Positions 27,794-63,365 of a stretch of 64,000 bases of DNA are shown here, in pieces (within the stretch, counting starts at the first letter, position 1; the number at the start of each line of letters is the position of its first letter). A program made the position numbers and the translations under genes. Origin of the DNA: Puniceicoccales bacterium (GTDB taxonomy: Bacteria; Verrucomicrobiota; Verrucomicrobiia; Opitutales; JAIRKQ01); contig JAIRYE010000006.1 of assembly GCA_031267915.1 (NCBI GenBank), positions 8,333-72,332 on the forward strand, in the 5' to 3' direction. Below the pieces are notes generated by a model. The model worked only from the letters and a program-made list of their open reading frames with translations. It had not been told where the DNA came from and did not search any database.

Positions 27794-27869
27794 GCCGATT
27801 TAGCTCAGTTGGTAGAGCACCCGCCTTGTAAGCGGACGGTCATCAGTTCGAGTCTGATAATCGGCTCCA
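27794..27869 (+). tRNA. tRNA-Thr(TGT)
   Basis: Cloverleaf: acceptor GCCGATT/AATCGGC, D arm GCTC/GAGC, anticodon loop CT-TGT-AA, T loop TTCGAGT, encoded CCA. Confidence 0.95.
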
Positions 27870-27905
27870 CTGCGGATTAGAGGGTTTTATTTTTTGCGGA
27901 GTTTT

Positions 27906-27981
27906 GCCGAGGTAGCTCAGCTGGTAGAGCAACGCTTTCGTAATGCGTGGGTCGTGAGTTCAAATCTCATCCTCGGCTCCA
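27906..27981 (+). tRNA. tRNA-Thr(CGT)
   Basis: Acceptor GCCGAGG/CCTCGGC, anticodon loop TT-CGT-AA, T loop TTCAAAT, encoded CCA. Confidence 0.95.
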
Positions 27982-38804: not shown

Positions 38805-39293
38805 TCAGGCACTTAGCACTCCAAAATCAGGCGTTGAAACTCCTGTATCCTCAGTTATCCTAATTCCTCCGCCCTGCTGCAATTTTGGATATTCCGATGC
38901 CCAGTACTCAACCGCATTGACAAAATCTTCCATGCGTTCGTATAGTCGCTCTTCGTCAAACATTGCAATGGGAACAATTTCTTTTATTATTATGGTGTCC
39001 GCGTCGTCCCCATCGGCTGCCTGTAGAAGCAGTCTAGATCCTGCCGTACCGGCCCAAAAAAAATTATCTTCCAATAATTTTTTATAGGCTTCCAGCGAAT
39101 TTTTTTCGAGATCTCCAATGGTGGACGTTAGGATAAACTCATCCTTTACTTCGTCAAATATGCACGTCACGTGAAATTTTTGATCAAAGAGTAAATAAGT
39201 TTCATTTTTTTCATTAAGTTTCAATGACTCTAACTTTAACCTCGACGCGAGATTACTTAATGCATCATCAACTTTTGTTCTGCTACCGCTCAT
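38805..39293 (-). CDS. CesT/Tir-family (class I) type III secretion chaperone
   Basis: 162 aa, acidic; pattern L.L..LKLNE....L.FD, LLEDNFFWAGTAG.RL.L, and C-terminal amphipathic helix LYERMEDFVNAVEYW typical of CesT-like chaperones. Confidence 0.8.
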   Translation of the reverse strand: MSGSRTKVDDALSNLASRLKLESLKLNEKNETYLLFDQKFHVTCIFDEVKDEFILTSTIGDLEKNSLEAYKKLLEDNFFWAGTAGSRLLLQAADGDDADTIIIKEIVPIAMFDEERLYERMEDFVNAVEYWASEYPKLQQGGGIRITEDTGVSTPDFGVLSA

Positions 39294-58539: not shown

Positions 58540-58557
58540 TCCTGCTTGGAGATTAGT

Positions 58558-59616
58558 ATGAATATAAGAGGCGAATCGAATGAAGGTAGCACTTCAAATA
58601 ACTTTTTAAAAGAAACGGGAAAACGGATAGTGGATTACGGAAAGAAGGTAATCGCAAATGCGATAAATTTGTTTAGGTCTTCCCCCGAAGATACCTCTCT
58701 GGAAAATAGAGAGGCGGCCACCTTAGCAGACGCGGATAAAAGCAAAGAGGTTGAAGATGAAAGAGAAGATGAAGAGGCTAAAGATGAAGGAGAGGATGAA
58801 GAGACTGAAGATGAAAGAGAAGATGAAGAGGTTGATTCGGAGGAAAAACTCAAGTTTTCCAGCGATGAAAATTCCCCGAATGCCAGCGATAATGAGAACA
58901 CAGATGAAAAAGTAAAGAAATTGCTCGAAGGTCTCAGCGAAACAGAAATAAAAGAGCTAATGAAAAGATTTCTGGAAAACCAAGACCGGGAAGTCGCAGA
59001 ACAAGAGACGAGACAACAGGAGACGCAACAACAAGAGATGCAACAACAGGAGATGCGATCGGAAGCGATAAAGAGTTGCTTAAAAAAAGTAGGATTAGGA
59101 ATACTACTGCCCTATGCCCATAATATTTTGGAAAAAGGAGTAAGGAATTACATAAAAGAAAAAGGTTTCGTGGATTTATGTTTTAGCATCAATATGGAAG
59201 TGTTGCATTTCGCTCAAATATTGGCTAGTGTCGGGGTAGCAACTTGCATAACTGTGCCAGTAGTATCAGTGACTGGGTCGACAGCACTTATTATTGGTGG
59301 ACTTCTTTATAGCTCCAAATTTTTATTAGCCTTAATGGGGAAATATGAAATTAAGGGCCTTGGCACAGAGGCTAGCGACGTGATTTTGTCAACCACATTC
59401 ATAAACATGTTCAAAGACGGAAGTCAAAAACTCATAAAACTGAACGGTAAGATAATTCTAGGATTGGATATTGGTAAGGATGTGTATAATTTCTGTAAGG
59501 TTTTAAAGTTTATGCATAGCATCGGAGCAGGCGCGCCTAATCCTATTCCGACGAATAATAGTAATGCCCAGGAGGCCAATAATAATAGCAGTGATGCGAT
59601 AGGTGATAATCTCTAA
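58558..59616 (+). CDS. Orphan acidic repeat-containing membrane protein (candidate secreted effector)
   Basis: 352 aa from the ATG after GGAG; A-rich DNA; acidic and Gln repeats; 47-aa hydrophobic stretch at 59200-59340; no Sec signal. Confidence 0.8.
   Translation: MNIRGESNEGSTSNNFLKETGKRIVDYGKKVIANAINLFRSSPEDTSLENREAATLADADKSKEVEDEREDEEAKDEGEDEETEDEREDEEVDSEEKLKFSSDENSPNASDNENTDEKVKKLLEGLSETEIKELMKRFLENQDREVAEQETRQQETQQQEMQQQEMRSEAIKSCLKKVGLGILLPYAHNILEKGVRNYIKEKGFVDLCFSINMEVLHFAQILASVGVATCITVPVVSVTGSTALIIGGLLYSSKFLLALMGKYEIKGLGTEASDVILSTTFINMFKDGSQKLIKLNGKIILGLDIGKDVYNFCKVLKFMHSIGAGAPNPIPTNNSNAQEANNNSSDAIGDNL
58747..58835 (+). repeat. 27-nt coding tandem repeat x3.3 (E-x-x-D-E-x-E-D-E)
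   Basis: Units gaggttgaagatgaaagagaagatgaa / gaggctaaagatgaaggagaggatgaa / gagactgaagatgaaagagaagatgaa / gaggttga. Confidence 0.9.
59002..59058 (+). repeat. 15-nt coding tandem repeat x3.8 (QETRQ/QETQQ/QEMQQ/QEMR)
   Basis: caagagacgagacaa caggagacgcaacaa caagagatgcaacaa caggagatgcga. Confidence 0.9.
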
Positions 59617-59697: not shown

Positions 59698-60015
59698 GTG
59701 GGTTCGTTTTTTACATCTCTGTTAACCTTCATTCTGGTCTGTACGAGCATTTTTGTGGCTCTGGTTATTTTGATGCAAAGGCCTTCGGCTAATGCTGGCA
59801 TGGGGGCTGCTCTGGGAGGTGGTGCTGCAGAATCGGCCTTTGGAAGCGATACGGCAAAGGTGTTGACCAGATGGACGATTAGCGGAATTGCCACATTTTT
59901 TATCGTGGCATTTGCGCTGTCGCTGTTGCGCATTCACGAAAATTCACATGGGCAGGGGCAGCCAAGCATAAATCTTGAAGAAATCGTCGATGACGGGGAT
60001 GTTTCAGAAGAGTGA
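59698..60015 (+). CDS. secG: Preprotein translocase subunit SecG
   Basis: LVILMQRP..AGMGAALGGGAAESAFG....VLTRWT; two TM. Confidence 0.93.
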   Translation: MGSFFTSLLTFILVCTSIFVALVILMQRPSANAGMGAALGGGAAESAFGSDTAKVLTRWTISGIATFFIVAFALSLLRIHENSHGQGQPSINLEEIVDDGDVSEE

Positions 60016-60742
60016 CAGTTCTGCAGTTTGCGTGCTCCATCTAATTATTCTTTGTGCGGTGCTAGGTGGGGGTGAATTGTGTGGCAGTGAATTACAGAGA
60101 CTTCACCATCTGTCTGAAAAAAAAGCGAGGGAATTTTTGAGAAGCGCGCAGTTGGAGTCTACGCATTTCAATGCCAGGGGGGAGGTCAGTTTCGAACTGC
60201 ATAGCTGTAGGGATGTGCGCAATGAAAAAACTGGAAAAATCATCTGCACAATGGATGGAGATGAAAAATTTTTTACTGTGAATTTTGACACTGGCGGATG
60301 CGTTTTAGGCGAAAGGACGCTTCGAAACATCGGACGTGATGATTTTGCAATGGACAGGCCATTTTTTGACAATTTAATTTTTTCCCCCCGGGATCTGTTC
60401 TTCATTTTTCTAGGAAAGGATCCATATTGCTACGCAGGTCCAGCAAGAATTTCCGGCCGTTCGGTACAACAGTTTGTCCGTTTCTTTGATATTTCAATGG
60501 ATGGTGTGCCGATTTCTGCCATAAAAATTTCCATCGATGGGAAATTTTTAACGGTTTTGCGAGTGGATTTCTTTGACAGTACACAGAAGTTGGTCAGGCG
60601 AATTGCGATTGACTCATTCGAAAATTTCGACGGCCTTTGGATGCCAAAGGTAATAGAATTTTCAGACCTGAGAAAGCATTGCCGAGCAAAGCTCAAAATC
60701 ACAGGTGCAAAATTTGTTTTCGCCGAAGAAGCTGTTCGTTAA
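59975..60742 (+). CDS. Outer membrane lipoprotein-sorting (LolA-like) protein
   Basis: Beta-rich; FS..DL, C-terminal DFFD...KLVRRI...FDGLWMPK.IEF.D pattern. Start uncertain. Confidence 0.6.
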   Translation: MKKSSMTGMFQKSDSSAVCVLHLIILCAVLGGGELCGSELQRLHHLSEKKAREFLRSAQLESTHFNARGEVSFELHSCRDVRNEKTGKIICTMDGDEKFFTVNFDTGGCVLGERTLRNIGRDDFAMDRPFFDNLIFSPRDLFFIFLGKDPYCYAGPARISGRSVQQFVRFFDISMDGVPISAIKISIDGKFLTVLRVDFFDSTQKLVRRIAIDSFENFDGLWMPKVIEFSDLRKHCRAKLKITGAKFVFAEEAVR

Positions 60743-60808: not shown

Positions 60809-60829
60809 TTCCACAGCGTGGGAGAAGGT

Positions 60830-61984
60830 ATGAGTTTTTGGAACCAAGCAGTGGAATTCTTATTCGGAAAGGGTCCGAGTGCGACAAAATCGGATGATAA
60901 ACAGAAATACATCGTCAAAAATGATACGGGGAGATTTAATGCTAGTCGGCATACTGAAACAACATCCCTTAATACCAGAAGTTTGAACAGCACACCCCGA
61001 AGATCCCTCACTCCTGACAGAGTAGGGAACGGCTCGAGCTCCACAAGCAGTAATGATCGCTATCTTTCAAACTCCTCCACCTCTAATAAAAGGAAAATTG
61101 ACTTAACACAACAGGCCTTCATTGACTTAACACAACAGGACTTAGATGATACTAAGGAATTTAATAGTGATCAATTTGTTGAAGAAGCATCCCAAAGTGC
61201 CAAAAATTTGAATAACTCGAAGAGAGACACATCCAGATCCCTTACTCCTGAAAGAAAAAGGAATGTCTCGAGCTCCACAAGCAATTATTCTCGCAACCCT
61301 CACACTAATGGAAATAGTGAACCGTGCTTCGTCATACACGGTAACAGCAACGTTATTCATATGAACTCCTATGCGAACAGCCAATCTGACGCGCCCGATG
61401 CGAACAGATCATCTGCGCAATACATTGGCTCCAACGGAAATGTGTCTGAGTCCTCTGGAAAGGAAAAGAAAAAAGGTATTGTGTCATCGATTCTGAAAAC
61501 GACACTTAACGGGACAATCGTGGTACTTAAAGGAACGCTAAATCTTGTTGGTGTAGCAGGTAGGTTTATCATGCAACACTATATTATTTCAGGGCTTGTA
61601 GCAGTCGGTGCGGTTAGTTATTTACGTGGAGGGAAAAGCGATACTGGTGGTACTTTAGGTCAGACCGTAAAGGATATTGAAAAGGATATTGAAGCCGTGT
61701 CGAAAGAGGTAACAGATAATAATACCGCCCAAGTAGTCAATTTTATTTTCAACAAATCCGGACACGCTACGGAATCCATTAAACGAATCAATGAAGCAAT
61801 ATTTAAAGCGGCCACAGACGGAAACTTGAGCGATCTGGAATATTATGCCAAATATCATCCTGGACCTGTGGGCTGGTTTACGCTAAACAACGAAAAAAAT
61901 TGCTCAAAACTCGTCTTCTCCGAGCAGTTATCTAAGGTTTATGATTCGTGTAAATTTCTTTTGGAAAATTCAAAAAAAGGGTAA
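60830..61984 (+). CDS. Orphan Ser/Asn-rich protein with eukaryote-like linear motifs (candidate effector)
   Basis: 384 aa; disordered N-terminal half with internal duplication, tandem IDLT, hydrophobic segment near 61475-61633; no Sec signal. Confidence 0.8.
   Translation: MSFWNQAVEFLFGKGPSATKSDDKQKYIVKNDTGRFNASRHTETTSLNTRSLNSTPRRSLTPDRVGNGSSSTSSNDRYLSNSSTSNKRKIDLTQQAFIDLTQQDLDDTKEFNSDQFVEEASQSAKNLNNSKRDTSRSLTPERKRNVSSSTSNYSRNPHTNGNSEPCFVIHGNSNVIHMNSYANSQSDAPDANRSSAQYIGSNGNVSESSGKEKKKGIVSSILKTTLNGTIVVLKGTLNLVGVAGRFIMQHYIISGLVAVGAVSYLRGGKSDTGGTLGQTVKDIEKDIEAVSKEVTDNNTAQVVNFIFNKSGHATESIKRINEAIFKAATDGNLSDLEYYAKYHPGPVGWFTLNNEKNCSKLVFSEQLSKVYDSCKFLLENSKKG
61001..61294 (+). repeat. 60-nt direct repeat pair (61001-61060 and 61235-61294)
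   Basis: 49/60 identical by manual alignment; both encode RSLTP(D/E)R..N.SSSTS. Confidence 0.9.
61097..61139 (+). repeat. Perfect 19-nt repeat with 24-nt period (IDLTQQ x2)
   Basis: attgacttaacacaacagg at 61097 and 61121. Confidence 0.95.
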
Positions 61985-61988
61985 AATT

Positions 61989-62987
61989 ATGTCAAAAGCC
62001 GGGGGTCTAACCGATAGTTCGTCAAAACAAGTCAATAATTTGCCAAAAAAATATAATATTACCTCTGAAGAGATGGGTAAGTTCTTGAAATCTGTTAAGG
62101 GAGATCTCAATAGAAAACCTTTTATTAGACAGATAGATACAATGTTAGCCGAAGGTAAGAAAAACCTGGACCGAAGGGTTAATTCCAAAGAATCCAGAGA
62201 TGGCAACAAGCCAAAAGATACATCCAATTCAGATGGATGGTTTAGTTTTCCAAAAATACTGATAGTCTGTGGCAGTATTTTTGGAATTTACGAAGCATTG
62301 GGATATTGCAAAAATTTCGTGACGAAAATAATGAGCTTTAATCTTTATACTGAGTACTATAAGAATCTAAATAAGGGTCTCAACGCGTACGAAAAGACCT
62401 TAGCTGAGACGAAGGACGGGTGTACGAAAAACGGAATAAATGATATAACCCTAAAAATTCGGGACGAATTTTATCCTGGCGAAAATCTCAAAGAAATAAG
62501 AGACCTTGCAGAGAAAACCAAATCTATTATGCGATGTGTTGATACTAATTGCAAAATAGAAGCAGCGATTGGTGTGCTAAATGGAGGGTATAATCTCCAG
62601 ATTAATACCACAGCAATTTCGGAAGCTAATAAAATCTATTGTAAGGAAGCAATTAACTCATTAGCTTCGGGTAATCTGAAGCTGGATATCAACAAGGACC
62701 TAGATAAAAAATATTTACGAATAACCGATCTGCTTGATGTAAAAAAGAATATCGAAACTAGTTTGAATGAATTTGTATCAGAGCATAAAATTGACGAAAA
62801 AGATCAAACATTTGTAGAAAAGCTCACAGAAGACACGATTGACGCCGCCAATGTTGTTGCCGATGGTGTTCATAAAGTCGGCGATGCTGTTAAAGCAGTG
62901 GGCCAAACGGCAACATTTTTTGGAACTGCTGCAGCATATCTGAACAACGGCCTTAAATTTCTGTTCGGCGAAGGAGTCAAAAAATAA
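61989..62987 (+). CDS. Orphan single-TM helical protein
   Basis: 332 aa; ATG 4 nt after the previous stop; AT-rich; hydrophobic FPKILIVCGSIFGIYEALGYC and Ala/Gly-rich C-terminus. Confidence 0.8.
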   Translation: MSKAGGLTDSSSKQVNNLPKKYNITSEEMGKFLKSVKGDLNRKPFIRQIDTMLAEGKKNLDRRVNSKESRDGNKPKDTSNSDGWFSFPKILIVCGSIFGIYEALGYCKNFVTKIMSFNLYTEYYKNLNKGLNAYEKTLAETKDGCTKNGINDITLKIRDEFYPGENLKEIRDLAEKTKSIMRCVDTNCKIEAAIGVLNGGYNLQINTTAISEANKIYCKEAINSLASGNLKLDINKDLDKKYLRITDLLDVKKNIETSLNEFVSEHKIDEKDQTFVEKLTEDTIDAANVVADGVHKVGDAVKAVGQTATFFGTAAAYLNNGLKFLFGEGVKK

Positions 62988-63056: not shown

Positions 63057-63365
63057 GTGAAGGCGCTCGATGCAGCAAATTTTGATGAAACACTGGAAAA
63101 GGGCGGCACCGTGGCCGTCGATTTCTGGGCTCCCTGGTGCGGGCCATGCCGTGCGCTGGCTCCTGTGATGGAACAGGTTGCGCAGGAGGTTGGCGATTCA
63201 GTCCTGGTAGCCAAGGTGAACATCGACGAAGCCCCCGAGCTCGGGGAAAGGTTCGGACTGCAGTCGATCCCGGCGATTATTTACTTTAAAAATGGGACGG
63301 AAGTCGGACGCAGCGTAGGGATGACGACGAAAACTGACGTCATTGCTGCGCTGAAGTCCCTGTGA
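63057..63365 (+). CDS. trxA: Thioredoxin
   Basis: VDFWAPWCGPC, KVNIDE, SIP. Confidence 0.96.
   Translation: MKALDAANFDETLEKGGTVAVDFWAPWCGPCRALAPVMEQVAQEVGDSVLVAKVNIDEAPELGERFGLQSIPAIIYFKNGTEVGRSVGMTTKTDVIAALKSL

Follow-up and report, generated by a model that had tools for sequence, protein, structure and literature searches.

The window, i.e., the whole stretch of 64,000 nucleotides analysed here, corresponds to G000:C22:8333-72332, where G000 designates this genome. It contains an orphan ORF of 384 aa, P0001 (60830..61984), which is a candidate type III secretion substrate; P0001, its features and the neighbouring genes described below all lie on the forward strand. A purine-rich Shine-Dalgarno-like run (60820..60829) places GGAG 5 nt before its ATG. 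Database gene calls conflict, one starting at Met178 (207 aa) and another giving 388 aa, and the start at 60830 is favoured over Met178 because the GGAG run precedes it. The first 177 codons contain no stop, against 5-26 in each of the other five frames (chance 1.7e-5), and the N-terminal half is coding in a real frame. Ser (39) and Asn (25) are abundant in residues 1-218, and the Ser, Asn and Thr fraction of the first 100 aa is 0.37, against a core-protein median of 0.16; disorder of this region was judged from composition only. A Kyte-Doolittle scan found no Sec-type hydrophobic N-terminal signal segment, the N-terminal 18-mers reaching at most 0.14. GC3 is 0.40 in P0001 and 0.47-0.64 in its neighbours, with the LolA-like gene at 0.43. 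A promoter-like TTGACT-16-TACGCT was spotted upstream by eye; it was not among the sites returned by a promoter consensus scan, which gave no excess over shuffles. The words listed in a preliminary description of this DNA all occur in the translation at their given positions, and its Ser/Asn-rich region followed by a hydrophobic segment agrees with the composition, with moderate hydrophobicity.

P0001 is followed, 4 nt after its stop codon, by a second orphan of 332 aa (61989..62987), which has a short hydrophobic segment, a weak match to the N-terminal word described below and no homologue that we could find; the two genes are probably co-transcribed. A third orphan of 351-356 aa (58546..59616) lies between tsf and secG and carries acidic and Gln tandem repeats, the word S-L-E-N-R-E-A at about residue 50 and a hydrophobic segment. 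The flanks are conserved, with secG and a LolA-like gene (59698..60742) on the left and the thioredoxin gene trxA (63057..63365) on the right. G006, the closest congener examined, keeps the order rpsB-tsf-secG-LolA-like-trxA-racemase and has none of the three orphans, and in G014 and G016, too, the LolA-like gene is directly followed by trxA. An unrelated signal-peptide protein fills the slot before trxA in most of the remaining congeners. Because the flanks are conserved and the content of the slot differs among congeners, P0001 and the downstream orphan are read as species-specific occupants of a variable slot. The unrelated protein (L005:5157-5597 and nine other congener loci) is about 145 aa long and helical, with a signal-peptide-like N-terminus, and is absent from G000 (best E 0.45) and G006. 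In congeners, small ORFs of 67-93 aa just upstream of secG (L007:2967-3170, L009:2993-3274, L018:1476-1709) share S-L-F-A-G-R-T-F; these ORFs, which occupy the position of the 356-aa orphan, possibly encode a small secreted protein. Rfam gave no family near P0001; apart from two adjacent tRNA genes at 27794-27978, the window has no Rfam match.

Searches for relatives of P0001 gave no homologue at a useful E value among 60 related genomes, including 0/22 genomes of the family, and P0001 was absent from 13/13 congeners searched. Weak matches occurred in 2 of the 60 genomes, both outside the family (E 0.013-0.07), and in 1.6 Mb of relatives' DNA only two weak G045 loci stood out. P0001 retrieved only its own fragment both from a set of 5.8 billion proteins searched at near and shorter lengths and from 1.84 billion representatives (50% clustering, all lengths), and none of 587 pattern matches in JGI metagenomes was confirmed. 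It had no match in Pfam, NCBIfam, PDB or Atlas, and the best paralogue in G000 reached an E of only 1.2. The earlier claim that P0001 is an orphan is thus borne out by genome, protein, metagenome, family and structure searches, by which P0001 is a species-specific orphan. Two leads were rejected: a G006 orphan sharing LN-x-RSLNS is not a homologue (E 0.11), and ankyrin/OspC leads from Atlas at 0.75-0.76 fell below its chance line, with no Ank family matching P0001 at E up to 10.

The G000 assembly comprises 787 kb in 23 contigs and is 86% complete; genomes of the family measure 0.7-1.0 Mb, and the nearest rpsB loci are 72-80% identical to that of G000. No 16S rRNA was found in the assembly, and 16S is present in 3/22 family genomes. 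LL51 and UBA9783 are described, in the passages of PMC11257099 that concern them, as small-genome Opitutales families of putative endosymbionts of termite gut flagellates with nucleotide transporters, and the endonuclear Ca. Nucleococcus is counted there among the putatively endosymbiotic Opitutales. In excerpts of PMC8204192, about 1 Mb and about 700 genes are quoted for Nucleococcus, and the Nucleococcus cluster has both nuclear and cytoplasmic members. The bacterium of G000 belongs to the same order as these (PMC11257099, PMC8204192), has a genome of about 0.8-0.9 Mb and, like LL51/UBA9783, encodes a nucleotide transporter, of the TLC type. Given this small Opitutales-type genome and the transporter, the bacterium probably lives inside a single-celled host, a protist. 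Among other genes, G000 encodes a protein (L116, G000:C14:4778-5296) with a CDI toxin restriction-endonuclease-like domain (PF21111), a family of bacterial competition toxins. G006 encodes several proteins without a match in G000, namely Mu-like portal and terminase proteins of a prophage remnant (L069:9105-11908), two adjacent macrodomain proteins (L049:13256-14995) and a Bax-inhibitor-like protein (L079:18714-19481).

In G000, SctV, SctJ, SctC, SctY and SctU exceed their NCBIfam cut-offs, FlhA and FlhB are below theirs, and flagellin was not found; by these profile matches, the genome encodes a non-flagellar type III secretion system (T3SS). Its genes are scattered in at least five clusters among housekeeping genes, i.e., an SctV group (G000:C9:67935-72800), an SctJ-ATPase group (G000:C15:13567-18504), SctC with a chaperone (G000:C9:123592-125972), SctU (G000:C9:142970-143992) and a translocator-like group (G000:C9:47866-52007), in which an LcrH-like chaperone (below cut-off) adjoins hydrophobic translocator-like genes. 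SctR and SctQ had no match in the 86%-complete assembly. Since these two genes in G006 sit where 18/21 ORFs, argS included, have no G000 match either, their absence points to an assembly gap. SctV is over its cut-off in 21/22 family genomes. Outside the family, 11/38 genomes from the rest of the Opitutales also have SctV over the cut-off, and many of these genomes are small (e.g., G025, G040, G058 and G060). Five CesT-family matches were found in G000, three of them over cut-off; a CesT-family class I chaperone gene over the Pfam cut-off lies in the window itself (38805-39293, reverse strand), and a further putative class I chaperone gene is at G000:C15:88308-88811. The strongest match, the CesT-like chaperone L021 (G000:C23:3705-4151), resembles ExsC, SrcA (STM2138) and CesT in a PDB search. 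It has matches in 13/13 congeners, and the 7 congener sequences that were aligned show 84-94% identity, compared with a median identity of 67% for proteins shared between G000 and G006; L021 is a candidate multi-cargo class I chaperone. Literature searches brought up no description of a T3SS or of T3SS substrates for small-genome Opitutales, and one may be in print.

P0001 belongs to a class of orphans that share an N-terminal word. Of 745 ORFs called in G000, 87 were at least 150 aa long and lacked a match in G006; 15 of these had a Pfam family, leaving 72, some of which are likely spurious frames, that span about 70 kb or 8.9% of the assembly. Among the 72, a broad N-terminal word occurs in 26 (about 12 expected), a hydrophobic segment in 19 and a long exact internal repeat in 10. 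A de novo word search in residues 10-120 of 71 of these orphans, with P0001 left out, returned L..R as the top pair (37/71 against 22 expected) and K.L..R as the top triplet (11 against 2.0 expected), and L..R.V occurred in 7 against 1.3 expected. G006 was used as a held-out genome: 148 of its 149 orphans were scanned, 60 with a family were dropped and 88 were kept, one gene being present twice. There, K.L..R was found in 10/88 (2.5 expected) and L..R.V in 8/88 (2.5 expected), or 7/87 with the duplicate gene removed. Neither the 407 core proteins nor residues 130-240 showed such an excess. After Pfam filtering, two variants of the pattern were weak in G006 (P 0.155 and 0.065); before it, the G006 orphans did not differ significantly from the core (p 0.14-0.65). 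In three small partial sets, the broad word occurred in 4/9, 6/10 and 6/8 orphans against about 2 expected; shared proteins of the third set were likewise high (37/85 against 18), a count that includes repeated orthologues.

The best match of P0001 to this word is L47-x-x-R-x-L (60968..60985). It scores 12.2 bits, which was equalled by 1/402 core proteins and 0/300 shuffles, with a matrix that was trained without P0001 and held two very similar sites among its training sequences, and with a seed, [LI]..R.[VILA], picked after seeing P0001. The K at -2 and the V at +5 that characterise the de novo patterns are both missing from the P0001 word. In another orphan family of congeners (L029:10431, L030:9716, L031:15282, L032:9607), whose members exceed 500 aa and are variable in the rest of the N-terminus, 4/4 orthologues keep LSSR at about residue 46. 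Beta-motifs, as described after Lilic 2006 in the relevant part of PMC7406222, start at residues 21-90 with L or F first and I, L or V later, and screening for them by itself yields many false positives. The P0001 word likewise has L first and a residue of the I/L/V type later, within 21-90, whereas the lineage word differs in having a central Arg as its strongest position. The class IB chaperone consensus given in the part of PMC3576375 that deals with it does not occur in P0001. From its position and its likeness to a beta-motif, we infer that the L-x-x-R word may be a chaperone-binding site.

Because the word is enriched in the orphans of both G000 and G006, P0001 is best read as a T3SS substrate with a weak anchor, a reading that rests on the genome context and on this statistical N-terminal word. 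We hold it, with moderate confidence, to be a species-specific substrate of the non-flagellar T3SS whose disordered arm gains motif-like words through local duplication. The host-directed effector of the preliminary description, possibly membrane-anchored, accordingly survives as the best reading, given the T3SS, the nucleotide importer and the class-wide word, and its SUMO, cell-cycle and nuclear parts mostly fail, as detailed below. We regard it as unlikely, though worth weighing, that P0001 is instead not secreted, i.e., that it is a lineage-specific protein of the bacterial membrane or cytoplasm, or that the gene is young and under weak constraint, with words that reflect chance and duplication. 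Its absence from the 13 congeners, a GC3 lower than that of its neighbours, the slot before trxA, which is empty in G006, G014 and G016 and occupied by an unrelated protein in most congeners, and the database call from Met178 would all suit such a gene, but the intact 384-codon frame with its ribosome-binding run, the polar, Ser/Asn/Thr-rich N-terminus free of a hydrophobic signal segment and the high score of the N-terminal word speak against it.

For P0001 as a secreted substrate, a further element is an amphipathic and then hydrophobic stretch at residues 217-265 (61478..61624), about 49 residues long, with two weak Kyte-Doolittle maxima over 19 residues (1.57 at 230-248 and 1.45 at 247-265), which makes a weak candidate for a membrane anchor. 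Single-sequence AlphaFold2 modelling gave a mean pLDDT of 37 and is unreliable; it placed one long helix at 210-266, and the C-terminal part (61637..61981), which has no family match, is predicted to be helical in the same low-confidence model. Inc-type proteins have a bilobed hydrophobic domain of about 40-60 residues. The stretch of P0001 might serve as an anchor in the manner of chlamydial Inc proteins, but it is weaker than their bilobed domain. The basic cluster KEKKK (61460..61474) lies just before the stretch and is more simply explained as a membrane-flanking basic patch. Neither KEKKK nor the clusters KRK (61088..61096) and RKR (61253-61261) matches the classical nuclear localization consensus K-[KR]-x-[KR], and no other match occurs in P0001; the "NLS-like clusters" noted previously are therefore not upheld.

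Three CDK-consensus words were claimed for P0001, and three are present, namely STPRR and LTPDR (60989-61003 and 61007-61021, together 60989..61021) and LTPER (61241-61255), which abuts RKR. Two of them are copies of one repeat: a 60-nt direct repeat with 82% identity and 234-nt spacing carries LTPDR in copy A (61001..61060) and LTPER with RKR in copy B (61235..61294). Of the differences between the copies, 9 are non-synonymous and 2 synonymous; pN (0.198) exceeds pS (0.138), with no signal of purifying selection, over too few sites for a firm test. By shuffling, three T-P-x-R words in residues 1-218 have P=0.001-0.002, and no other orphan has as many as three (0.1 expected); two or more such words were counted in 3/72 orphans, where 1.25 would be expected, and neither CDK words nor K[KR]x[KR] words are enriched in the orphans of G000 or G006. 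Exact repeats of at least 19 nt occur in 10/72 orphans against 0/402 core genes, and P0001 carries further repeats that hold no such motifs. Duplication therefore does not single out the SUMO-interaction and CDK motifs, contrary to the suggestion that the duplicated segments mark them as special.

The two IDLT copies (61097-61108 and 61121-61132, the subsequent QQDLDD ending at 61150) lie within a tandem duplication (61097..61144) that encodes IDLTQQAF and IDLTQQDL. What was first described as a recent exact 19-nt duplication is indeed exact over 19 nt, but the real unit is a 24-nt tandem, 22/23 nt identical in the repeat finder, with two substitutions, both non-synonymous. The copies of IDLT, like those of T-P-x-R, are not independent events. 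A SUMO-interaction motif (SIM) core, as outlined in parts of PMC12751080 and PMC8616421, consists of four residues, three of them hydrophobic and mostly V, I or L, plus an acidic flank. Copy 1 reads K-I-D-L, with two hydrophobic residues, and copy 2 reads F-I-D-L, with three of four; only copy 2 fits the core, so that tandem SIMs are not found. In the register of the repeat, the final codon of copy 1 supplies the F that precedes copy 2, which suggests that a single SIM-like core arose at the repeat junction and that the duplication created this core and did not double an existing one. The site, F97-I-D-L-T with its acidic tail (61118..61189), has a net charge of -7 over residues 97-120. As in the PIAS/RNF4-type SIMs described in excerpts of PMC8616421 and PMC12751080, it has a hydrophobic residue followed by I-D-L-T and then acidic residues in a low-complexity region, and it differs from them in having F, not V, I or L, at the first position. 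Unlike them, it belongs to a bacterial protein and is a single core, not an array, born at a duplication junction.

P0001 could then be a T3SS effector with one working SIM, through which it would bind host SUMO and hold SUMOylated host proteins at a membrane, an explanation we judge improbable. F-I-D-L-T matches the pattern [VILFY][VI]DLT and fits psi-psi-x-psi if F is allowed first, but it fails both [PILVM][ILVM]DLT and the parallel SIM pattern of ELM, and F-x-x-L at residue 97 also fits the LIR/AIM pattern. With a strict filter (psi-[VI]-D-L-T plus an acidic tail in disorder), P0001 has the one site seen among 72 G000 orphans, where 0.01 is expected (P about 0.007), and none was seen among 88 G006 orphans, where 0.01 is also expected. 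This filter was, however, shaped on the P0001 site and ignores the many other eukaryotic motifs that might have been noticed instead, and a broader rule (psi-psi-x-psi plus acid) expects 0.55-4.9 sites. [VI]DLT occurs 12 times in 11/745 G000 ORFs, including V-I-D-L-T in a core enzyme, with no significant excess in the orphans of G000 or G006; SIMs show no enrichment in the lineage. Several core proteins of G000 carry [VI]DLT, among them ones recognised as GAPDH and EF-Tu. Another orphan (G000:C21:3587-4741) has F-V-D-L-T and fails the acidic-tail and disorder filter. On the host side, the inclusion of the endonuclear Ca. Nucleococcus in the Opitutales (passages of PMC11257099) would suit a SUMO-binding effector, but the review searched gave no statement on SUMO in parabasalids, the likely host group.

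The preliminary description's nucleomodulin, in which tandem poly-SUMO-binding SIMs, three CDK sites and nuclear localization signals form one selected module, gains something from the number of T-P-x-R words and from TPER abutting RKR, but is highly improbable and weak as a finding, since copy 1 lacks a SIM core, no nuclear localization consensus is present, two of the CDK words stem from one duplication with pN above pS, two or more such words are already expected in 1.25 of the 72 orphans (3 seen), and a membrane anchor would fit poorly with import into the nucleoplasm.

Under the favoured reading of P0001 as a T3SS substrate, a class I chaperone, for which L021 is the best candidate, would bind residues of about 40-55 and pass the protein to the injectisome. 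Once in the host, P0001 might associate with a membrane through residues 217-265, and the Ser/Asn-rich disordered arm and the helical C-terminal part would bind host proteins. The arm would evolve by local duplication of short segments. The second IDLT and the third T-P-x-R, like the basic clusters, would mostly be by-products of this process, not a selected SUMO/CDK/NLS module, and P0001 would be one of a few dozen fast-evolving orphan T3SS substrates.

Among the closest parallels are the chlamydial substrates of the multi-cargo class I chaperone Slc1 (Tarp, CT694 and CT695), which, in the portions of PMC3576375 that describe them, also come with a reduced, intracellular-type genome, scattered T3SS clusters and several class I chaperones, and which are orphan proteins with polar N-termini free of a class IB consensus, as is P0001. 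G000, however, belongs to a different phylum, there is no sequence homology, and P0001 is a predicted substrate; in addition, no shared linear word among the Slc1 substrates is reported in PMC3576375, whereas the G000 lineage orphans share one. The Ehrlichia TRP effectors (PMC10028187) resemble P0001 as disordered, repeat-bearing proteins of an intracellular bacterium that carry host-like motifs, but they are type I secretion substrates of an animal pathogen with tested motifs and have no homology to P0001, the secretion of which is predicted.

P0001 bears on how verrucomicrobial symbionts of protists, some of which live inside nuclei, control their hosts. The family-wide T3SS, the conserved chaperone and the shared N-terminal word together provide a testable list of candidate substrates. 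In a bolder scenario, to which we attach little weight, a T3SS-bearing Opitutales symbiont, possibly intranuclear, would inject a membrane-associated P0001 with a SIM newly made by the junction of the recent 24-nt duplication, as part of a set of orphans that have the L-x-x-R-x-hydrophobic word in common as an export signal. If this SIM works, it would be a host-binding motif that arose from one micro-duplication, caught in a single step.
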